From an uncultured Gemmatimonadales bacterium (GTDB taxonomy: Bacteria; Gemmatimonadota; Gemmatimonadetes; Gemmatimonadales; GWC2-71-9), in NCBI GenBank assembly GCA_963730185.1, contig CAVSQW010000003.1:1-64000 (forward strand): a stretch of 64,000 nt of DNA. Direction: 5' to 3'. Position 1 is the first letter of the stretch; every line of letters begins with the position of its first letter. Positions 2,167 through 18,141 of the stretch are shown in pieces. The notes beneath the pieces are model-generated. The model saw only the letters and a program-made list of their open reading frames with translations, had not been told where the DNA came from and searched no databases. Both the position numbers and the translations under genes were made by a program.

Positions 2167-3328
2167 CTACGCCAGCCATGCGAATCGCTCGATCAGGTAG
2201 GGCGCGACGCGTGCCGGCGTGGTGGTGATCAGCGCTCGCCGCCACGCACGCAGCACGACCTCGGGGACGCGCCCGAAGCCCGGGCGTACGAGCGGCGAGA
2301 GATGCACGAAGTCGCGCGTGCCCAGGTCCAGGCTCGCGAGGAGGGCGACCGTCGCGTCGCGATGCCGGTGCTCGTCGTCGTGCTCGCCGAGACCGACGAG
2401 CACGGTGAGTCCCACGCCGACGCCGGCCGTTCTCATCGCGTCGATCGCCGCCCGGACGTCGGAGAGGTCGGCGCGCTTGCCGAGACGGCGCCGCAGGTCG
2501 GGCTGGCCCGTCTCCAGACCCAGCGTCGCCTCGACGAGTCCGGCCTCGCGCAGCGCGGCGAAGGCCTGCGCCGAGCGCGAGGGTGCGCGGTCGGGATCGA
2601 GGAAGGCGGCGACGCCGCGGCGGGGGATGCCGATCGCCGTGCGGACGCGCGCCAGGCGTTTGAGCAGCAGCGTGTCGTTCAGCGAGAGCGCGGAGGCCGA
2701 GCCCAGGAAGAGGCCGTCGCGCTCGGCGATCGCCACGCCCAGGGCGTCCACGACCGCCTGCAGGTGATTCTCGAAGGCCTGGTCGTCGAGCACGCGGAAC
2801 GGGCGCTTCTTGTAGAACGCGCAGAACCCGCAGCCGTGGTTCGGGCAGCCGGTCGCCGGCAGGATCACGAGATCCCGGTAGCGATGCGGTGGGAGGATGC
2901 GCGTGGGTTCCGGCCAGGCGCGCTGCAGCGCCACACCGTGGGCGCGCATGCGCAGCGGTCGTCCACGTGCGCGCCCGCTCGAGTCGGGCGAGAAGCTCGG
3001 CGCGCGTACCGATGAGCTCGCGCGACGCGTCCTCTCTCGCCTCCAGGACCTCGGCCGCCCGCGCCGCGGTGCGCACGGCGGCATTGTGGACCATGTCCGC
3101 CTCGCCGGGTCGGCAAGCCAGGAACCGTCCGCGCACCCGCCGCACGACGCGACCGTCGAGGGTGCGGCGAAACGTCCCGTGCTCGTCGGCGTAGGCGGTC
3201 CAACGACCGGCGGCGTCCAGCCTGGTGTAGGGGCCCGGCTCGAACTCGAGGACCGTGGCGTGGCGTGCGGCTCGCGCACGCAGCAGAACGTCCGCAGGCG
3301 GGCGGCGACGGACGGTGGCATGCGCCAT
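2167..3328 (-). CDS. Radical SAM protein with N-terminal extension (frameshift near 2945)
   Basis: ATGCPNHGCGFCAFY (CX4CX2C), FLGSASAL and GLETG motifs. The N-terminus (MAHATV...FRRTLDGRVV) is in the neighbouring frame. Confidence 0.8.
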
Positions 3329-7676: not shown

Positions 7677-8458
7677 TCCTTCGTCCCCAGGCGCAGCGCG
7701 CGCACCTCGGCGACGCAGCGCTGGTGGAAGACGCCGATCGGTCCGGCCAACGTCTTGCGACCCGGAACGGAGGAGGACAGGACCTTCTTGCCGTCCAGGT
7801 ACACGTGCGCCTTGCGCCCCTCGACGGCGACCGTGAGGCGGTGCCAGGCCTCCATCCGGATCGGGTGGATGCTCGTCTGCCCGACGTCCACGTTCTTGCC
7901 ACCCGACGACTGCGTCATGGTGACCTCGCTCTTCTGGGCGAAGGCCATGACGAATTCCTGACGACCTGCCTGGTCGTCACGGGCGAATGCCACGCCCAGC
8001 AGGTAGCCGTGGGCGTGCTCCTTCAGGAAACGGAATTGCATGTCGTAGACGAAGACGTCCGGTGCGCGAAGCGTGGGATCGGTCCAGAAGATGCTCCCAC
8101 CTTTCTGGTCGATCGTCAGCACCTTGCGGTCGTAGGACGTGCGGTCGCCGGCGGGAATGGCCTTGTCGGCCAACATGTCCACCCACTTCGTGATGCCGGG
8201 GATGGGGACGTCCTCCGGGGCCGCTCCCTCGGGCTTGGCGTCGGTGCTCACGCCCAGCTCCACGAGCATGCGCCTCGCTTCTGCGTCATCGGGCTCGACG
8301 GAGAGGAGGCGGCGCAGGGCGTCGATGGCGATGTCGGCGTCGGCCTTCGCAAACTGGCGGGAGAACGCGTGGATCTGCTTGGCGAAGCCCGCCTGCAGGT
8401 CATCCAGCTCGGCTTCGCCCTTGCCGAGGACCCGGATGCGCTTGAGCGCGCGCGTGAT
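7673..8458 (-). CDS. TPR + concanavalin/DUF1080-like protein, 5'-truncated
   Basis: The frame stays open upstream of ATG 8269 (ITRALKRIRVLG..ALRRLLSVEPDDAEARR) to about 8458. The C-terminus has WHRLTVAVEG..VYLDGKKV..GPIGV. It overlaps the next gene by 4 nt. Confidence 0.6.
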   Translation of the reverse strand: MTRALKRIRVLGKGEAELDDLQAGFAKQIHAFSRQFAKADADIAIDALRRLLSVEPDDAEARRMLVELGVSTDAKPEGAAPEDVPIPGITKWVDMLADKAIPAGDRTSYDRKVLTIDQKGGSIFWTDPTLRAPDVFVYDMQFRFLKEHAHGYLLGVAFARDDQAGRQEFVMAFAQKSEVTMTQSSGGKNVDVGQTSIHPIRMEAWHRLTVAVEGRKAHVYLDGKKVLSSSVPGRKTLAGPIGVFHQRCVAEVRALRLGTKE

Positions 8459-8460
8459 GG

Positions 8461-8709
8461 AAGGACGTGCTGATGGACGCGGCCGGCACGGTGGTCGAGG
8501 TGGAGGAGCAGGTGGCGCTCGACGCGCTGCCGGCGGCCGTCCGGACGGCCCTTCAGGCCAAGGCGGGCAAGGGGACGATCCGGCGGGTGGAGTCGCTCAC
8601 CAAACACGGCAGCCTGGTGGTGGTACCGAGGCCCAGGTGGTGACCGGCGGGAAGCGGTCGGAGGTGCAGGTCGGGGCCGCACGGCGAGACGCTCGAGACG
8701 GAGCAGTAG
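8461..8709 (+). CDS. PepSY-like domain protein, C-terminal part only (indels)
   Basis: KDVLMDAAGTVVEVEEQVALDALPAAVRTALQAKAGKGTIRRVESLTKHG..EAQVVTGGKRSEVQVG, ending TAG 8709. No start codon context. Confidence 0.55.
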
Positions 8710-8870
8710 TCCCGACCAGCTTCGAGGCGTCCTCGACGCCGACGGCGCCTGTTGTGCCCGCGCGGCCGAAATCGGCCGGCCGGGGCGCCGCGGACGAAAT
8801 GGCCCGGGCGGGAAGGGATTGGTGGCGCTCTATACTGATGGGCGCCACCACGACTGCAGCGGAGCCGGGA

Positions 8871-9534
8871 ATGCCTCGTTTGCCGCTTGGCCTGCTGACG
8901 CTCGGCTTGACGGCGACGCTCAGGCGCAGCGGCCATCCTCGGTCCCGCCGCGCGGCAGTTCGTCTCCGTCGACACCACCGCCGTCGCGCTGACCCACGTC
9001 CGGGGATCAGGGCACGGCCGGGCGGCGACGACGGACCAAACGATCGTCATCCAGGACGGCCGGATCGCGTCGATCGGCCGCTCGGCGACGACGCCGGTGC
9101 CCGCCGGCACGCTGATCATGGACCTGGCCGGCAAGTCGGTGATTCCCGGCCTCGTGATGGTTCACGAGCACCTGCACTATCCGACCGGGCCGGGCGTGTC
9201 CGGGAATCTCACCCAGTCGTTCTCGCGCCTCTACCTCGCCGGGGGCGTGACGTCGATGCGCACGGCCAGCAACATGAACGGCATCGGGGAGATCAAGCTC
9301 AAGCAGGCGATCGACGCCGGCGCCCAGGCCGGCCCGTGGATCGACGCCACGGCGCCCTATCTCGAAGGGCGCCCCGGCATCGGTCTCGGACAGGTCTACG
9401 AGATCGAGGACGCCGCCGCGCCGATGGGCGAGTTTCGCGACGGCGCATTCGTCCCAGTGCGGGCTGGACGCGGATTGTGGGCAGAGCGCGAGAGGCTGGA
9501 GCAGGAATACGAGCAGGATTTCGCCGCGCTGTAG
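8871..9534 (+). pseudogene. Truncated amidohydrolase family protein
   Basis: TIVIQDGRIASIG, DLAGKSVIPGLVMVHEHL (HxH) and LAGGVTSMRT. Frameshifted at the 5' end, and homology stops near 9420, so the C-terminal barrel half is absent. Confidence 0.7.
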
Positions 9535-9700
9535 CCGCGGGCTGAGCTCGGAGTCAGCACCTGAGGGACGACGCGTCGATGCCGTGCCCCAGGCGGAGCT
9601 GGACGCCGCGACCCGAACGCCAGAGCCACTTGTACTTGACATTTCGCAACGCCCGCTCGTGGCCACCAGATCTGTTGCAAAAGCGGCAGGTCAACCTCCG

Positions 9701-10340
9701 CTAGCGCCGCGCGCGACCGGGCGCCGGCTCGGCCATCACGGTTACATGCACCGCGCCAGAGTCCGGCTTGGGAGCCAGGACCCTCGGCAGCACGAACGCC
9801 GCCGCCAGCCGCCCGCCCGCGACCGACAGAGCGGTATAGTCGCCCTGGGTAAAGCCATCCGGCCGCGATCGGCGGCACGGGGTGAGGGCGTGGATGCCCC
9901 CCCGGTCCGGCTTTCGGTCACCACGAACTGACCGAGATACCAGCCCCGATCCGTCCCGGCCGCGGCCGGCCACGCCTCCGCGGCCCTCGCCTGTTCGACC
10001 GGCCGGGGAGCCGACCACCTCCCACCGGCGGGCCGAGTGGCGCAGCGGACCGGTTGCTCCGATCGTCGCTGCGGTTGCCCTCTGACCAGCAGGCCAGGAG
10101 GTCGCCGTTAGGCCGGCCGGCCAGGACCGGGCTGTCGAGCAGCATGTCGCCGGTCATGACGACGACCGGTGCCGCGGTGCGTCGTGGCCCCGGTGGCGGA
10201 GTCGCGGCTGTTCACGAAGACCGGCACGGCCTCGGCGGAAGCGAACTCGCCCGGGACGCGCGAGAGGAAGACGCCCATGGACTCGCCCACGCCGGACATC
10301 GAGGGACGACCAGGCGTGGATCCCGGTGCCCTTGCCCGCG
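9701..10340 (-). pseudogene. Fragmented BNR/sialidase-like propeller remnant
   Basis: Pieces in different frames: GIHAWSSLD, PVLAGRPNGDLLACWSE, QGDYTALSVAGGRLAAAFVLP. Confidence 0.35.
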
Positions 10341-10421
10341 GGGTCCGCAAGGCGATCCGCGGTCCTTGGCGAACTCGTCCATTGTCGGTACAGTGTATGA
10401 CCCCGACAGCGGAGACAGGCA

Positions 10422-10883
10422 ATGTCCAAAGTGACGCCCTTCCTGATGTTCAACGACCAGCTCGAAGCCGCCATCGCCTTCTACACCGCCACGTTCCCGG
10501 ACTCCAAGGTCAAGAACGTCGCCCGCACCGGCAAGGACGGCCCCATCACGTCCGCCGAATTCGTCGTCGGCGGTCAGTCGTTCATGGGCTACAACGGCGG
10601 GCCGTACTTCACCTTCTCCCAAGGGTTCTCGCTCTTCGTCGACTGCGAAGACCAGGAAGAGGTCGACGAGTACTGGAACAAGCTCGTCGATGCCGGCGCG
10701 ACCCCCTCGCAGTGCGGCTGGATTACCGATCAGTTCGGCGTCACGTGGCAGATCGTGCCGAGGCGGTTCATGGAGCTGATCAACGACCCCAATGCCAAGA
10801 AGGTGCAAGGGGTGATGGAGGCCATGCTGAAGATGGTGAAGCTCGACGTCGCGGCCCTGGAGAAGGCGTACGAGGACGCCTGA
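10422..10883 (+). CDS. VOC family protein (PhnB / 3-demethylubiquinone-9 methyltransferase-like)
   Basis: MSKVTPFLMF..AIAFY, NGGPYF, CEDQEEVDEYW, CGWITDQFGVTWQIVP; GGAG RBS. Confidence 0.9.
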   Translation: MSKVTPFLMFNDQLEAAIAFYTATFPDSKVKNVARTGKDGPITSAEFVVGGQSFMGYNGGPYFTFSQGFSLFVDCEDQEEVDEYWNKLVDAGATPSQCGWITDQFGVTWQIVPRRFMELINDPNAKKVQGVMEAMLKMVKLDVAALEKAYEDA

Positions 10884-10887
10884 CATC

Positions 10888-11752
10888 GTGAGACACTTTC
10901 TTGCCCTGGCGTTGCTCCCGATCTCGTTCGGGGCGGGCGCCATCGTCATCCGGAGCGACGTCAGCGACGCGAAGTATCGCGTCCCGGCGTCGGCCTACCC
11001 CGCGCTGGCCGACATGCCCGGCGAAGCCCACGGCGTGCTGATCGCGCCGCGGTGGGTCGTCACCGCCGCTCATGCCGCTCCGATGCAGGGCAGGGACGAC
11101 GAAATCTCCATCGGCGGCGTGGCGCGCAAGATCCAGCGGGTGGTGGTCTATCCGGGCTACCAGAAGCTGCCCGCCAAGCTGGTCAAGGAGGCCCTGGCCT
11201 CCGGCGACTTCTCCAAGGCGCACGCGTTTTTGGCGGCATCCAACGACATCGCGCTGATCGAGCTGGCGGCGCCGGTGACGGACGTGACGCCGGTTCCCCT
11301 CTATCGCGGGACACGACGAGGTGGGGATGACCGTCCAGCTGGTGGGGAAGGGCGCCACGGGCAACGGCGCCGACGGCCAGGACCCGGAGAGCCCGCATCG
11401 CACCGTGTTGCGCCGGGCCTTCAACGTGCTCGTCGGCGCCGACTCGCGCTATGTCTGGTATCGGTTCGACCCGCCGTCGTCGGCCCTGCCGCTCGAGGGC
11501 GCCACGGGGAGCGGCGACAGCGGCGGGCCGCTGCTCGTCGGGGAGGGGAGCGCACAGCAGCTCGTGGGGCTGGCCTCGTGGAGCAGGTATCCGCCGGGTC
11601 ATCCGTTCTTGAAGGAGTACGCGGCGGGGCGGGCGTTCAAGGAGGGGCTCTACGGCGAGATCGTCTACGGCGTTCGGATCTCCAGGTACGTGGAATGGAT
11701 CGAAAGGGTGATGTCGGCGCCCGGGAGTGCCGAGAGCCAGCGTCGGCCATGA
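10888..11752 (+). CDS. Secreted trypsin-like (S1) serine protease (frameshift near 11310)
   Basis: Signal peptide, WVVTAAH and NDIALIEL in the first frame; GDSGGPL in the second frame. Confidence 0.85.
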
Positions 11753-11768
11753 ACATTCGGGGCACCTG

Positions 11769-12176
11769 TTAGCCGGAGCGCCCCGATCTGGTCTTCTTGC
11801 TCCGCTCACCCACCCAGGTTGCCAGTTCAGCTTCGCTCAACGCCCCAGCAGCCAGCGCCACCATGGCTTCGACAACATCGGCTTCCGTCGCCGAGAAACG
11901 CCATCCGTTCAATTCCAGGAACACGACCATTGCCACGAACGCCACGCGCTTGTTGCCGTCCCGGTACGGGTGGCTTCGGCTGAGGCCAAACCCGTATGCC
12001 GCGGCGAGCTCTGGCATCGTCGTGCCGGGCTCGTAATGCCACTTCTGCCGCGGCCGAGCCAACGCCGCCTCGAGGGCGTTCTCGTCCCGGAGGCCTGCCA
12101 AGCCGCCGTGCTCCCGGATCTGATCGAGATGGATGGCGTCCGCCACGATCCGAGCGACCCACCGGGGCTCAGCCAC
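11769..12176 (-). CDS. doc: Doc/Fic family type II toxin
   Basis: HPYRDGNKR Fic motif and GGLAGLRDENALEAALARP. Confidence 0.9.
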   Translation of the reverse strand: MAEPRWVARIVADAIHLDQIREHGGLAGLRDENALEAALARPRQKWHYEPGTTMPELAAAYGFGLSRSHPYRDGNKRVAFVAMVVFLELNGWRFSATEADVVEAMVALAAGALSEAELATWVGERSKKTRSGRSG

Positions 12177-12183
12177 GGGGAGC

Positions 12184-12411
12184 CTACTTCGCGAGCTGAC
12201 GAAGGGCGTTGCGGTACTTCTTGGCGGTGCGGGCGGCCAAGGCGAGCGCCTTCTCGACCGTGGGGTCGTAGGGGCTCAGGAGGATCCCCTGGTCCGTCTC
12301 GACGGCGAGGACCCGGTCGCCGACGCCGAGATTGAGCCGGTCGGCCATGTCCTTCGGAAGGGTGGCGCCGACGGAGCCGCCGACCTGACGGAGCTTCACC
12401 TCGCGGACCAT
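12184..12411 (-). CDS. AbrB/MazE-type antitoxin
   Basis: MVREVKLRQVGGSVGATLPK..KKYRNALRQLAK, directly upstream of doc. Confidence 0.9.
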   Translation of the reverse strand: MVREVKLRQVGGSVGATLPKDMADRLNLGVGDRVLAVETDQGILLSPYDPTVEKALALAARTAKKYRNALRQLAK

Positions 12412-12440
12412 CGCGGTCTCCGGGAGTAGACGCCCGAATA

Positions 12441-12458
12441 GTAGCACTGCCGTGCTAC
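12441..12458. promoter_or_regulatory. Inverted-repeat operator of the TA operon
   Basis: GTAGCAC-TGCC-GTGCTAC overlaps a minus-strand TACTAT -10-like hexamer (12438-12443). Confidence 0.55.
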
Positions 12459-12489
12459 ACGCGCCAGGCCGGGCAAGGGGCTCCCTCGG

Positions 12490-12979
12490 TCAGCAGCCCG
12501 GCACCAGCCACTCCTCGATCCGAAGGTCGTTGGCGCCCCCCTGGGGCACGCCCACCGCGAGGCCGCAGGCGTTGGCCGCTCGAAGTGCCAGGCCGCCGGG
12601 CAGAACCTCGCCGTGGTCGCGGTACCAGACGTACGGTGCTCGGGCCGCCGCTCGAGACGTTGCCATACACCACGCCCAGCGAGTCGATCCCATTCACCTG
12701 GACGACGGTGATTCCGGCCGGGACCGGAAGGGTGGCGAACCCGCCGGCGGCGGTCCATCGCCACCCGACGTTGGTGCCTGGGACGCTGGTTGTGGCGGTG
12801 CCGGCCACGACGCCGCAGTCGTTGATGGCGTTGGCGCCGGCGGACACCGTCCCCGGCGGGCGCCCGATGCCGTTCATGCCGGACGCCGCCGTCCAGATGA
12901 AGACATCGGAGGTTGCCGCCGTCGAGGTCTGCGACGTGCCGGCCACCTGACCCAGCTCGTTGACCGCGGGCCTACGCAT
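12490..12979 (-). pseudogene. HAF-type extracellular repeat protein fragment
   Basis: AVNELGQVAG, FIWTAASGM, ANAINDCGVVAG and WRWTAAGG repeats. Frameshifted and lacking a signal peptide. Confidence 0.55.
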
Positions 12980-13161
12980 TGGACACCTCCGCGAACGTCC
13001 GGGAGAGACGCCGGTCGCGCCCGATCAGCATGGCGCCGAGCACCGCGGCCGCGGCGAAGTCATAGCTGGCGCAGAAGGCCGGCCACCAGGTCGGGACGCC
13101 ACGGTTGGTTATGACCGCACCCGCTGCTGGGAAGCAAGGTCGCGAACGGGGCCGAAACCGG

Positions 13162-13180
13162 CTTGAACGGAGGGGCTGAC
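13162..13180 (-). promoter_or_regulatory. Putative AraC-regulator box, copy 1
   Basis: CTTGAACGGAGGGGCTGAC, 18/19 identical to 14333-14351. Confidence 0.5.
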
Positions 13181-13214
13181 CTCTCCTGTCGGCCGGACCG
13201 ATCGGCCGGTAGCT

Positions 13215-14054
13215 TTGTCCGACCACCACCCGGGAGGGTCGTTGGCCAGGGCGATCGGCGACATCGAGATGTTCCGGTGGGACGGGGGCTGCATCTTCGT
13301 GGGCGCGGCCACCGGCCTGGTGCCGGTCCACGCCCACCAGGCGATCCAGGTCTGTGCCGGACGGGACGCCCCCATCCGGTTGCGGGCCGCCGACGGCGAT
13401 CCGTGGCGGGATTTCCCGGTTGGGATCGTCGCCTCGCAGCAGCCGCACGGCATGGATGCCACGGCCGTGTCGCTCGGGTTCGTGATGTTCGTGGAGCCGG
13501 AGACGCGGGAGGGCAGGGCCCTCGCCGAGAGGCATCTCGCGCAGGGGCTCGCCGCCGTCGATCGAGCCGTCATCGCGGCCGAGATGACGGAGCTCTTGAG
13601 CCGATTCGTGGGGCGGCGGAGTGACGAGGCGATGGTCGAGTCGGCACGGGGCATCATCGCCAGGCTGACCAAGGGGGTCGAGCCGTCGGTGGTCTCGGAC
13701 GAACGCATCCTGCGAGCCATGGCGTGGATCAACACCCACCTGGACCAGCCCCTTAGCCTCGATGCCGTCGCCGCCCAGGTGTTTCTCTCGCCCGGGCGGT
13801 TCCGGCACCTCTTCGCGGAGCAGGTCGGGATGGGGCTGAGGCCCTATGTGCTCTGGCGCCGGCTCGCCAGGATCTGGGAGCTGGGTATGCGGGACGTCGC
13901 GATCTCGCGGGCAGCGCACGAGGCGGGGTTCGCCGATGCCGCCCACCTTACCCGCACCTCCAAGCGGATGATCGGCCTGGCGCCGTCGATGTTCAGGGTC
14001 TCGCGCACGCCCGATGCCCGGATTCGGGAGCAGATTCGGGCGGCGAAGCCCTGA
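13215..14054 (+). CDS. AraC family transcriptional regulator
   Basis: N-terminal HAHQAIQ and SQQPH cupin-like His motifs. C-terminal LSPGRFRHLF and AGFADAAHLTR. Confidence 0.9.
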   Translation: MSDHHPGGSLARAIGDIEMFRWDGGCIFVGAATGLVPVHAHQAIQVCAGRDAPIRLRAADGDPWRDFPVGIVASQQPHGMDATAVSLGFVMFVEPETREGRALAERHLAQGLAAVDRAVIAAEMTELLSRFVGRRSDEAMVESARGIIARLTKGVEPSVVSDERILRAMAWINTHLDQPLSLDAVAAQVFLSPGRFRHLFAEQVGMGLRPYVLWRRLARIWELGMRDVAISRAAHEAGFADAAHLTRTSKRMIGLAPSMFRVSRTPDARIREQIRAAKP

Positions 14055-14081
14055 CTCGGCTCCGCCGCCCGATCGCCGTGC

Positions 14082-14279
14082 TCAGGCGCCGACCCCCGCG
14101 CATTGGCACCGTTCGCAGTTGCAGTCGGCGGCGCAGCGGCAGGCCTCGCCGCTCTCGCAGGGGGTGCAATCGCACCCCTTGCCCGACTCGGCGCACCGAC
14201 ACGCCCCGGGACCCTCGGCGCAGGTGCAGAGGCCCACGCAGCTGACTCCGGTTGGAGCGACATTCCGTTCGAGAGACAT
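14082..14279 (-). CDS. Cys-rich metallothionein-like peptide (65 aa, 14 Cys)
   Basis: Six CxC motifs, no aromatic residues, and a GAGGT RBS just upstream of the ATG. Confidence 0.7.
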   Translation of the reverse strand: MSLERNVAPTGVSCVGLCTCAEGPGACRCAESGKGCDCTPCESGEACRCAADCNCERCQCAGVGA

Positions 14280-14332
14280 GTGACACCTCAGGTTAGTGGT
14301 TGCCTGATTCTAGGGCCGGCGAGCCGATCGGA

Positions 14333-14351
14333 CTTGAACGGAAGGGCTGAC
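14333..14351 (-). promoter_or_regulatory. Putative AraC-regulator box, copy 2
   Basis: CTTGAACGGAAGGGCTGAC, 53 bp upstream of the Cys-rich ORF. Confidence 0.5.
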
Positions 14352-15047
14352 TTGCAGCGCGACAATCCTGGCCTCGGTCTTTCTCGGGTGGCGGTTCTCG
14401 GCGCGGCCGGCGGCCTCGGCCAGGGCATCCTGGCGGCGTGCCGGGATGAGGGGGTCGGTTTCACCGCCATCGTCCGATCGCGACCGGAGCGCATCGCGGA
14501 GGTTCCGCCGGGCTCGCGGGTCACGGTGGTCACCTCGCTGGCGGACCGCCCCGGACTGGCCGCCGCGTTCGCCGGGGCCGACGCCGTCCTGACCGCACTC
14601 GGCGTCACGGCCACGAGCCGGGACGGATCGGCGTCACTGTCGGCGAACATGCCGGTGGTGGAGCAGGCCATGAGGGACGCCGGGGTGGACCGGATCGTCA
14701 TGATCAACACGCTCCTGACGTCCTTGCCCGGCAAGCCGGCCAGCCTCTCGATGCGGTTCTTCTCGAGGATGCCGGGGACCATCGGTCGCGGGGCCAGGGA
14801 GCAGCAGTCGGTGGCCGACGCGCTCGGGCGCGGTGCCTTCTCCTCGCTCCGCTGGACGCTGGTCCGGGGAGGCCTGAATGCGCGGGGCCGTGACGAGCCT
14901 CCCGTGGCCTCGGCGGATTGGGCAGGCGCCCGGAACTCGTGGATGCCCGTCTCGTACCGGGCGATGGGGCGATGGATGCTCCAGGAGGCCGCGTCGAACG
15001 CATTCGTTCGGATGGCTCCCCTCGTGTCGCGCGCCCGCCCCGGGTAG
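14352..15047 (+). CDS. NAD(P)H-binding oxidoreductase (atypical SDR)
   Basis: RVAVLGAAGGLG Rossmann motif, AFAGADAVLTALG and LRWTLVR. Start uncertain. Confidence 0.8.
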   Translation: MQRDNPGLGLSRVAVLGAAGGLGQGILAACRDEGVGFTAIVRSRPERIAEVPPGSRVTVVTSLADRPGLAAAFAGADAVLTALGVTATSRDGSASLSANMPVVEQAMRDAGVDRIVMINTLLTSLPGKPASLSMRFFSRMPGTIGRGAREQQSVADALGRGAFSSLRWTLVRGGLNARGRDEPPVASADWAGARNSWMPVSYRAMGRWMLQEAASNAFVRMAPLVSRARPG

Positions 15048-15133
15048 GCAATACTGTGAGGGCGTCGACGTTGGTGCCTTGGGCGGACCAGGGGAGCCGC
15101 GGGAGTGTCACTACGACGACTGGACCCAGGCCG

Positions 15134-15502
15134 GTGAACCAATCGATCCGCCACCTCGCGCTCGTGGTCCGTGACTACGATTCGTCAACTCCTCGACCAG
15201 TGCGCCGAGTGGAAACCCGAGCTGGTGATGAACTGCGCCTCCTCGAGCGCTCGCTTCCGAACGTTGCGCGGGCGACCAACGAGGACACGCGGGCACGTTT
15301 TCGTGATCTCCTGACCAACGCCGCCCGGTTGCCGGAAGGCGACGCCAAGTGGGCCGAGGCCCAGCTGGCAGAGCGATTGCTCGAGGAACTGGCTCCGCCA
15401 GCTCTGAGCATCTTGGCGACCGTCGCCCGGTACGACGGCCCCAAGCCCATTGCCATCGTCTCACGGCCCAAGTGCCAGCTCCCCGGCGGTCGAGGTCCCT
15501 GA
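15134..15502 (+). pseudogene. Chimeric remnant: VOC N-terminus fused to an unrelated helical fragment
   Basis: VNQSIRHLALVVRDYD (glyoxalase-like start) is followed abruptly by ATNEDTRARFRDLLTNAA. Confidence 0.35.
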
Positions 15503-15545
15503 AAACGACGAAGCCCCGCCGGACCTAACGATCGGCGAGGCATTC
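15502..15545 (-). terminator. Intrinsic terminator after tRNA-Arg
   Basis: Minus-strand GCCTCGCCG...CGGCGGGGC hairpin followed by TTCGTCGTTTT. Confidence 0.5.
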
Positions 15546-15557
15546 GGTTACCACCAG

Positions 15558-15631
15558 CGGGCCCGGCGAGATTCGAACTCACGACCTCTTGCTCCGGAGG
15601 CAAGCGCTCTATCCAGCTGAGCTACGGGCCC
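15558..15631 (-). tRNA. tRNA-Arg(CCG)
   Basis: GGGCCCG acceptor stem, CTTGC-CTCCGGA-GCAAG anticodon arm, GTTCGAAT T-loop. No encoded CCA. Confidence 0.95.
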
Positions 15632-17439: not shown

Positions 17440-17514
17440 TCGGGGCGCCGGGATTTGAACCCGGGACCTCCTGCTCCCGAAGCAGGCGCGCTAACCGGGC
17501 TGCGCTACGCCCCG
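17440..17514 (-). tRNA. tRNA-Pro(CGG)
   Basis: CGGGGCG acceptor and CCTGC-TTCGGGA-GCAGG anticodon arm. Confidence 0.95.
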
Positions 17515-17516
17515 TA

Positions 17517-17590
<74 letters not shown>

Positions 17591-17601
17591 TCGAGTCTCC
17601 A

Positions 17602-17675
<74 letters not shown>

Positions 17676-17679
17676 GAGC

Positions 17680-17780
17680 CAGACGGACGAACGGACAGAC
17701 GGTCTGGCGGACAGGTTGGGAGTCGCGACTCGCTTCGCGCCGACCAGCTCCGTCCGTCGGTCCGGCTGTCCGTCTGTCCA
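17680..17780. repeat. GGAC/GTCC tetramer-rich imperfect inverted repeat
   Basis: GGACAGACGG pairs perfectly with CCGTCTGTCC. Similar arrays occur near 17325, 17900, 25575, 37890 and 52805. Confidence 0.6.
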
Positions 17781-17786
17781 CTGCCA

Positions 17787-17860
17787 TGGCGGGGGTGGGA
17801 TTTGAACCCACGACCTCCGGGTTATGAGCCCGGCGAGCTACCAGACTGCTCCACCCCGCG
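17787..17860 (-). tRNA. Initiator tRNA-fMet(CAT)
   Basis: C1 mismatch and three G-C pairs in the anticodon stem (CCGGG-CTCATAA-CCCGG). Confidence 0.95.
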
Positions 17861-17934
17861 TCGATGTCTGCATCGGCCGGCGATCGGTCGCCTTCCCGGT
17901 CCTTCCGTCCGACTGTCGGTCCGTTCCTACTCAG

Positions 17935-18007
17935 AGCGGGAAACGGGACTCGAACCCGCGACCCCAACCTTGGCAAGGTTGTGCTCTACCAACTGAGCTA
18001 TTCCCGC
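17935..18007 (-). tRNA. tRNA-Gly(GCC)
   Basis: GCGGGAA acceptor and CAACC-TTGCCAA-GGTTG anticodon arm. Confidence 0.95.
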
Positions 18008-18027
18008 ACAAGACCCAGCGGGCCACC

Positions 18028-18056
18028 ATAGTAGTACGCTGGACCGACGTTGGCAA
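18028..18056 (-). promoter_or_regulatory. Sigma70-like promoter upstream of tRNA-Gly
   Basis: TTGCCA-17 bp-TACTAT. Confidence 0.6.
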
Positions 18057-18068
18057 CCAGGCACCTGA

Positions 18069-18141
18069 TGGAGGCGAGGGGGATCGAACCCCTGACCTCG
18101 TGAATGCCATTCACGCGCTCTCCCAACTGAGCTACGCCCCC
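18069..18141 (-). tRNA. tRNA-Ala(GGC)
   Basis: GGGGGCG acceptor with G3:U70 and CGTGA-ATGGCAT-TCACG anticodon arm. Confidence 0.95.

Follow-up and report, generated by a model that had tools for sequence, protein, structure and literature searches.

The window, i.e. the whole stretch of 64,000 nucleotides that was analysed, contains a gene for a small Cys-rich peptide (14082..14279, minus strand, ATG to TGA, 65 amino acids), which is convergent with a gene for an AraC-family regulator (13215..14054, plus strand, start codon uncertain), with 27 nt between the two stop codons. Upstream of the peptide gene and on the same strand are located a Shine-Dalgarno-like GAGGTG (14284..14289), which ends 4 nt before the ATG and corresponds to the ribosome-binding site noted in the preliminary description of this DNA, a -10-like hexamer TAGAAT (14307..14312), to which a promoter role may be assigned, and a conserved box, TCAGCC-N5-GTTCAAGT (14332..14350), which precedes the hexamer by 19 nt and is the predicted AraC binding site. 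A second copy of the box (13161..13179, minus strand) lies directly upstream of the AraC gene and divergent from it, with GACCTT in the -10 position. It precedes the remnant of a membrane-protein gene (12972..13112, minus strand), namely the last ~35 codons of a gene for a ~138-aa protein (42% over 33 aa, E 6e-7 pairwise); the intact form, which has no Pfam match, is found near the AraC gene in L022:11247-11660, L025, L026, L045, L055 and L058. Divergent from the peptide gene is a gene for an NAD(P)H-binding Rossmann protein (14388..15047, plus strand, PF13460, start uncertain). Its copies in genomes G008 and G011 are 77-78% identical and ~5.5 kb away from the peptide gene; the Rossmann gene is an island neighbour, which may or may not belong to the peptide/AraC module. 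Judged from its sequence, window 8139-15631, up to a tRNA-Arg (15557-15631), looks like a decaying island, with fragmentary-looking amidohydrolase, trypsin-like and 12455-12979 genes. A pair of genes for an AbrB/MazE-type antitoxin and a Fic/Doc toxin is present at 11769-12447 (minus strand), and six further tRNAs at 17440-18141.

Translation of 14279-14082 (minus strand) gives a peptide of 6.4 kDa (pI 4.6) with 14 Cys in positions 14, 18, 20, 27, 29, 36, 38, 41, 47, 49, 53, 55, 58 and 60. This agrees with the length and the Cys motifs given in the preliminary description, as does the composition count (no His, Phe, Trp or Tyr), and by inspection no signal-peptide h-region is seen in the N-terminus, in line with the signal peptide having been reported as absent. 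A variable N-terminus of 17 residues is followed by a 7-Cys block, CxC-x6-CxC-x6-CxC-x2-C (C18-C41), and a 6-Cys block, CxC-x3-CxC-x2-CxC (C47-C60). Among the 15,073 ATG-initiated ORFs with a length of 30-150 aa that the 5.27 Mb assembly contains (genome 82% complete), the peptide ranks at the top with six CxC motifs, the next ORF having four, and only one other ORF contains at least 20% Cys. Six CxC motifs together with the absence of CC pairs, as in the real peptide, were obtained in only 0.24% of shuffles. The codon adaptation of the gene (0.65) resembles that of the neighbouring genes (0.68 and 0.64), whereas the overlapping plus-strand frame has 0.27. No match to the peptide was found in Pfam at E 1, in NCBIfam or in PDB sequences, and the family profile gave only matches with E>1 in PDB. 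The AlphaFold2 model of the peptide has a mean pLDDT of 44 (13-row alignment; a shallow alignment alone also gives low confidence), and the fold search was dropped owing to the poor model.

A search for homologues, which the preliminary description had proposed as a check, identified about a dozen related peptides of 45-72% identity, referred to here as type A. They occur in 3 of the 21 genomes of the same genus (G008, G011 and G005); in the search of 41 genomes at E 1 these three best non-self matches were accepted, and four weaker ones, when inspected, had no Cys-rich ORF. The GTDB scan and the metagenome scan yielded four candidate loci each; two of the metagenome loci were discarded for lack of a Cys-rich ORF, and a third encodes a peptide identical to that of the window. 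The matches discarded for this reason include a viral-contig match of 15 residues (L001), L031, L032, G116, G123 and G402. Among 1.84 billion protein representatives three type A matches were found, and seven when the profile was used; wherever the title of a type A record names a taxon, it is Gemmatimonadota. Profile searches of 401 genomes of the phylum and of 301 genomes of the family gave three accepted matches each, the window genome counted in both times, with two weak matches discarded in the former. The type A family is rare.

The conservation pattern of this family is dominated by Cys. Nine Cys are invariant in the 13 aligned members (C18, C27, C29, C36, C38, C49, C53, C55 and C58), C20 and C41 are near-invariant, and C14 is present in only 2 of the 13, so the core of the family comprises 11-13 Cys starting from C18. 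In the first 17 columns of the alignment only the Met in position 1 is kept. The spacers consist of small or polar residues, with invariant Gly, Asp and Asn; 13 of 14 members are without His and 9 of 14 without aromatic residues, and the number of Cys varies from 12 to 32. The upper limit is set by the G005 homologue (L005:1309-1680(-)), a protein of 122 aa with 32 Cys in which CxCGxx hexapeptide repeats are inserted between the two ends of the family sequence, and which may be a bacterial case of the modular, tandem-repeat expansion of metallothioneins. In all 15 pairs formed by six type A genes pN is lower than pS over a 41-codon core (0.12 and 0.55, respectively, between the window gene and L030), and the non-coding frames of the locus are interrupted by stops in the homologues. 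Type A is under purifying selection, and ORF 14082-14279 is a real gene, conserved and selected. Two database members, P0004 and P0007, carry N-terminal extensions of 42 residues that seem to run across the promoter, with the translated box inside them; their database starts are probably too early.

The upstream region is conserved in its geometry. All seven type A loci with enough flank (the window, G008, G011, G005, G059, L025 and L030) contain the box with the consensus TCAGCC-N5-RTTCAAG, whose AGCC lies exactly 69 nt from the ATG, a TANNNT (or TANNAT) hexamer in the -10 position, separated from the box by 19 nt, and a GAGG in the same Shine-Dalgarno position. When a matrix derived from 13 boxes in other genomes was run over the 5.27 Mb assembly, four high-scoring sites were obtained: the peptide promoter, the copy at 13161..13179, an orphan site and C7:293753, the last of which was rejected because it looks like coding sequence of the opposite strand. 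The orphan site (G000:C2:199632-199650(-), L077) is a perfect box with a -10-like hexamer, downstream of which no gene was called; the genes read by eye in its vicinity are a PhzF-like one and, within 2 kb, a Fur/PerR-like and a catalase-peroxidase-like one. No intact gene other than that of the peptide was found downstream of a strong box in this genome (82% complete). Since the box accompanies the AraC family wherever the latter occurs, it is presumably the AraC binding site. A generic scan for sigma-70 promoters and terminators detected neither a promoter nor, between the convergent peptide and AraC genes, a terminator. A TCAGG...CCTGA inverted repeat upstream of the Shine-Dalgarno sequence was rejected as an operator, as it is not kept in the homologues.

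The same seven loci all have the AraC gene tail-to-tail with the peptide gene, and the AraC genes of type A loci are 52-72% identical to window 13215-14054. On the tree they form a 100/100 clade of eight rows, seven with the peptide and an eighth (G167) whose sequence ends early. The N-terminal beta domain of the regulator contains H39-x-H41-x3-Q45...H78 (codons within 13329..13448, plus strand), a predicted cupin-type metal site, whose four residues are invariant in 20 of 20 aligned relatives. The structure model (pLDDT 90) matches AraC regulators; its closest full-length folds are those of the fatty-acid-binding ToxT/Rns, and metal cupins such as DddQ and TM1459 appear among weaker matches (E 1e-3 to 4e-3). 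Ten plasmid loci with more distant relatives (27-40%) have the HxHxxxQ motif in nine cases, the box in six and a Cys-rich peptide in one; three of the ten are located beside sterol-desaturase-family genes, and ZIP, ArsR or CadR genes occur close to three. Because these distant regulators keep the His motif beside non-metal genes, possession of the His site does not establish that a regulator senses metal.

Cys-rich peptides behind the box are not confined to type A. At 16 of 31 AraC loci (29 genomes together with L025 and L030) a Cys-rich peptide is encoded within 1.5 kb of the AraC gene, and at 15 there is none; by comparison, the entire window genome contains one such ORF. The 16 loci comprise seven type A peptides, eight peptides of another kind, here called type B (one truncated), and a single 23-aa peptide, all behind the box. 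Type B peptides (L043:1145-1297(-), L061:2398-2544(+), L052:2415-2579(+), L068:4775-5050(+) and P0014-P0039) are ~50 aa long, His-poor and mostly with 12 Cys, arranged as CxCxxC-x4-CxCGC followed by CxCGxxCxCGxxCxC. No profile similarity between type B and type A is detectable (hhalign 1.4%), and type B reaches no Pfam cut-off. The range of type B is broader than that of type A, with 26 further database matches, one of which is a Thermoanaerobaculia protein, and type B is unannotated; behind the box and next to the AraC gene it is present on pMTS1 of Cupriavidus sp. P-10 and on a Gemmatirosa kalamazoonensis record. A tblastn search of plasmids gave for the type A peptide only matches with E>1 inside other genes and for type B none; as type B sits on two records of that collection, this search is insensitive. 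P0044, a 610-aa membrane/TPR-like protein in a 90% cluster with type B peptides of 47-50 aa, was set aside, having no visible similarity to them; it looks like a clustering error. The 23-aa peptide, with 7 Cys (L096:8083-8250, minus strand, in G216), is preceded by the box and followed by a multicopper oxidase gene. On the AraC tree type B occupies separate places from type A, requiring about three changes (one tree search, long-branch outgroups). Of the 401 sampled genomes 25 are AraC-positive; these account for all 10 accepted peptide matches, and the remaining 376 have none. Six of the matched loci had served to build the type B profile, and related loci are not independent of one another, so a Fisher value overstates the association and the information lies in the 376 genomes without a match.

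The genes surrounding the regulator were considered as a guide to its signal. Gene calls in type A loci include no copper or zinc transporter or oxidase; the neighbours are DJ-1/PfpI, alpha/beta hydrolases, the Rossmann protein and an unnamed membrane protein. Among 20 wide AraC loci, 8 encode by motif a YtkA-like lipoprotein (PF13115 confirmed on all five tested), usually accompanied by a di-haem MauG/CcP-family gene (PF03150 on four tested) and also by an ArsO/MSMEG_0569-like flavoprotein (below cut-off); no YtkA was found in the 82%-complete window genome. YtkA is a copper chaperone, and MauG-like proteins are partners of copper proteins. As a recurrent arrangement we observed AraC, the ArsO-like flavoprotein, the YtkA-like lipoprotein with a Met/His motif and the di-haem MauG/CcP gene, sometimes with a multicopper oxidase (L088:9156-10827, L089:4393-6177, L095:9057-13437 and others); this module looks uncharacterised, and we take it to recall MbnP/MbnH-type pairs. 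Multicopper oxidases are present in 3 of the 20 wide loci (raw count); that of G216 immediately follows the short Cys peptide, that of G300 immediately follows the box, and in G080 CusA/CzcA-like RND genes follow 1.3 kb after the peptide (raw occurrence, first 500 residues compared). Multicopper oxidases and CusABC belong to the standard defences against copper (PMC11672702, in part). The wider AraC regulon looks metal-related and is probably copper-related. Near the same AraC there are also GNAT-like proteins whose C-terminal tail is Cys-rich and conserved (CxxC...C...CxC...C; L088:6035-6676, L091:2766-3428, L093:4654-5319, L042:3251-3757). The strongest context of the peptide is absent from the preliminary description, which mentions neither the partnership with AraC and its box nor the type B peptides nor the copper-type genes next to related AraCs.

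We consider it probable that the peptide is a Cys-only bacterial metallothionein under AraC control, copper accounting for about two thirds of that probability. Copper(I) is the most likely metal and zinc or cadmium is possible. The peptide would be cytoplasmic and its apo-form may be unfolded (the pLDDT of 44 being weak evidence), and on binding of a thiophilic metal it could fold around metal-thiolate clusters by means of its 7-Cys and 6-Cys blocks. The box presumably lies over a weak -35 position, so that the promoter would need an activator; AraC, whose N-terminal 3-His-1-Gln cupin site may bind a metal, would occupy the box and activate the peptide gene. An excess of thiophilic metal, or a stress that releases metal, would in this way switch the gene on and the peptide would sequester the ions. 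In fungi, a 7-Cys box forms a Cu5 cluster and a 6-Cys box is taken to bind ~4 Cu(I) (PMC4755600, in part), so by analogy the 7+6 layout would hold ~9 Cu(I); for Zn or Cd we estimate a capacity of 4-5 ions. Several observations weigh against the metallothionein reading: no metallothionein cut-off is reached, 15 of 31 AraC loci are without a peptide within 1.5 kb, and a Pseudomonas metallothionein is neither metal-induced nor needed for metal resistance (PMC7387436, in part). A simple copper role is opposed by the neighbours of the type A genes, by the missing YtkA in the 82%-complete genome and by the distant AraC relatives beside sterol-desaturase-family genes. A farther-reaching proposal is offered as tentative, possible rather than probable: that the AraC subfamily is a direct sensor of copper (a thiophilic metal) that separately recruited two unrelated Cys-only, eukaryote-style metallothionein families, one of them repeating the fungal tandem expansion.

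Other explanations have to be weighed against the metallothionein. It is hardly credible that the frame arose by chance in GC-rich DNA and is not a gene: such DNA does yield many spurious ORFs, and an amino-acid-sensitive codon score of the peptide gene is negative, as expected with 22% Cys, but the homologues with their identity of 45-72%, the excess of pS over pN, the stop-broken other frames and the fixed promoter geometry largely refute this reading. A RiPP precursor, the alternative already named in the preliminary description, or a disulfide-rich exported peptide is highly improbable. Its small size and Cys content would suit such a role, a radical SAM gene is present in the window (2167-2934, 11 kb off), and the genome is only 82% complete. 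However, the radical SAM gene is unmatched in the seven other type A loci tested (three of them under 4 kb), no CxxxCxxC radical SAM motif occurs in those loci, and DUF692/MNIO was not found in the window genome, so that no maturase travels with the peptide, as the statement that none is adjacent had implied; in addition, there is no conserved leader, no export signal is seen by inspection, and a number of Cys ranging from 12 to 32 is difficult to reconcile with a precursor.

Two further proposals leave the gene and its regulation in place and change the task of the peptide. It could be a regulator partner, a small carrier delivering metal to the cupin site of AraC or withdrawing it and setting the threshold of AraC, instead of acting as a bulk store. 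This would be favoured by the tight co-inheritance with one AraC clade and by the confinement of all 10 accepted peptide matches to the 25 AraC-positive genomes, but around half of the AraC loci lack a peptide in their vicinity, and the tolerance of dissimilar peptides and of a 32-Cys expansion fits capacity better than a specific interface; this proposal is quite improbable. Unlikely, though less so, is a sacrificial thiol buffer, where AraC senses an oxidant, a reactive electrophile or an organic compound and the peptide mainly quenches, bound zinc being secondary. On the one hand, the island neighbours (DJ-1/PfpI, hydrolases, NAD(P)H-/FAD-dependent oxidoreductases and a di-haem peroxidase-like protein), the desaturase-family genes beside distant AraC relatives, the fatty-acid-binding ToxT/Rns as closest full-length folds of AraC, and the Fur/PerR-like and catalase-peroxidase-like genes near the orphan box all agree with such a role. 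On the other hand, the strict CxC spacing without CC, the invariant Gly, Asp and Asn and the modular repeats are better suited to cluster geometry, and multicopper oxidases and a heavy-metal RND system are located behind or near the same box.

If the metallothionein reading is true, this Cys-only family would mean that clusters of the animal/fungal style are in use among bacteria as well, and that genes for Cys-only metallothioneins escape annotation. The conserved box provides a directly testable regulon, and the cultured hosts of the sister (type B) module, Gemmatirosa kalamazoonensis and Cupriavidus sp. P-10, make both the signal for induction and a potentially new metal sensor accessible together. 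The rarity of type A limits its ecological weight.

Type A shares the features of the metallothionein superfamily, being small and Cys-rich, with CxC/CxxC motifs and few or no aromatic residues. With E-values up to 10 the sole Pfam matches were eukaryotic metallothionein models, PF12749 for 9 and PF00131 for 4 of 13 members. The best PF12749 match (P0003, E 0.002) has 18.5 bits against a cut-off of 22, and no member exceeds the cut-off of PF12749, PF00131, PF02067 or PF02068, the window peptide reaching 9.3 against 23. The term 'eukaryote-style' used in the preliminary description therefore stands as a resemblance to eukaryotic models, but all of these matches are below cut-off. Cys-rich sequences match metallothionein models by composition. 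The nearest named ESM clusters of the peptide are also metallothioneins (0.80-0.84, leads only), and the peptide is best called a putative metallothionein. Type A thus appears to be an undescribed, rare, Cys-only family of bacterial metallothionein-like peptides, in no curated family, which forms a two-gene module with AraC. The literature searched contains no paper on a Gemmatimonadota metallothionein or an AraC-linked metallothionein, and a member may previously have been listed in metagenome-mined sets. A metalloregulator class of AraC type is not covered in the metal-homeostasis reviews searched; the word AraC has no occurrence in the consulted text of PMC7558416 or in half of PMC11672702.

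Few bacterial metallothioneins have been characterised, namely the SmtA/BmtA-like and Pseudomonas proteins and MymT (PMC7558416, PMC10612145, both in part), and it is the metallothioneins of bacteria and plants that most commonly have His ligands (PMC10612145, in part). SmtA/BmtA and the Pseudomonas proteins resemble type A in being bacterial, small and Cys-rich, and SmtA too adjoins its own regulator. However, SmtA/BmtA have His ligands and an aromatic zinc-finger core, whereas the window peptide has neither His nor aromatic residues. The Tyr-Cys core pattern is absent from all 14 members, the window peptide is below the cut-off of PF02069 (SmtA/BmtA), and this model has no match in the window genome; the suggestion that the family stands outside SmtA/BmtA is thereby upheld for a conserved, selected and His-free group. 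The regulatory arrangement differs as well: SmtA has the divergent repressor SmtB (PMC7387436, in part), whereas type A has a convergent AraC and a divergent Rossmann gene with no SmtB/ArsR adjacent. Pseudomonas metallothioneins are without a metal regulator, and one of them is neither metal-induced nor needed for metal resistance (PMC7387436, in part).

Type A has no sequence match to MymT in Pfam, NCBIfam or PDB searches, and the taxon is different. CsoR-type regulation and the His content also set MymT apart from type A. Nevertheless, MymT of mycobacteria is likewise a small, unannotated bacterial ORF, with a Cu(I)-thionein role (PMC7558416, in part). Environmental small Cys-rich ORFs have also been mined from metagenomes (DeepMetagenome, PMC11705764, in part), some of them conferring Cu/Cd resistance in E. 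coli; such metagenome-mined candidates are described as richer in His, and four short type A/type B motifs had no match in the text of four supplement PDFs of that paper (pictured and GitHub sequences being outside this scope).

In layout, type A also resembles eukaryotic proteins. The fungal Cu-thioneins (Neurospora MT, Cryptococcus CnMT1/2 and Tremella TmMT) are likewise small and CxC-dominated, their 7-Cys box consists, as does the N-terminal block of type A, of three CxC and x2-C, and the tandem-repeat lengthening of the G005 homologue resembles that of the long modular fungal proteins (PMC4755600, in part). The spacing differs, however: the fungal CxC-x5-CxC-x3-CxC-x2-C (PMC4755600, in part) is found in none of 14 type A members, whereas 11 of 14 have CxC-x6-CxC-x6-CxC-x2-C. 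Unlike the fungal proteins, type A is bacterial and has a second, 6-Cys block; the likeness is one of layout and need not reflect homology. In plant metallothioneins the spacing of the 6-Cys C-terminal domain is CxC-x3-CxC-x2-CxC. The C47-C60 block has this spacing, and the full pattern is kept in 7 of 14 type A members. Plant MT1-3 have a long Cys-free linker (31-44 aa in oat; PMC10603854, in part), whereas type A is without one. For the likeness to eukaryotic and plant metallothioneins, convergence is as likely as descent.
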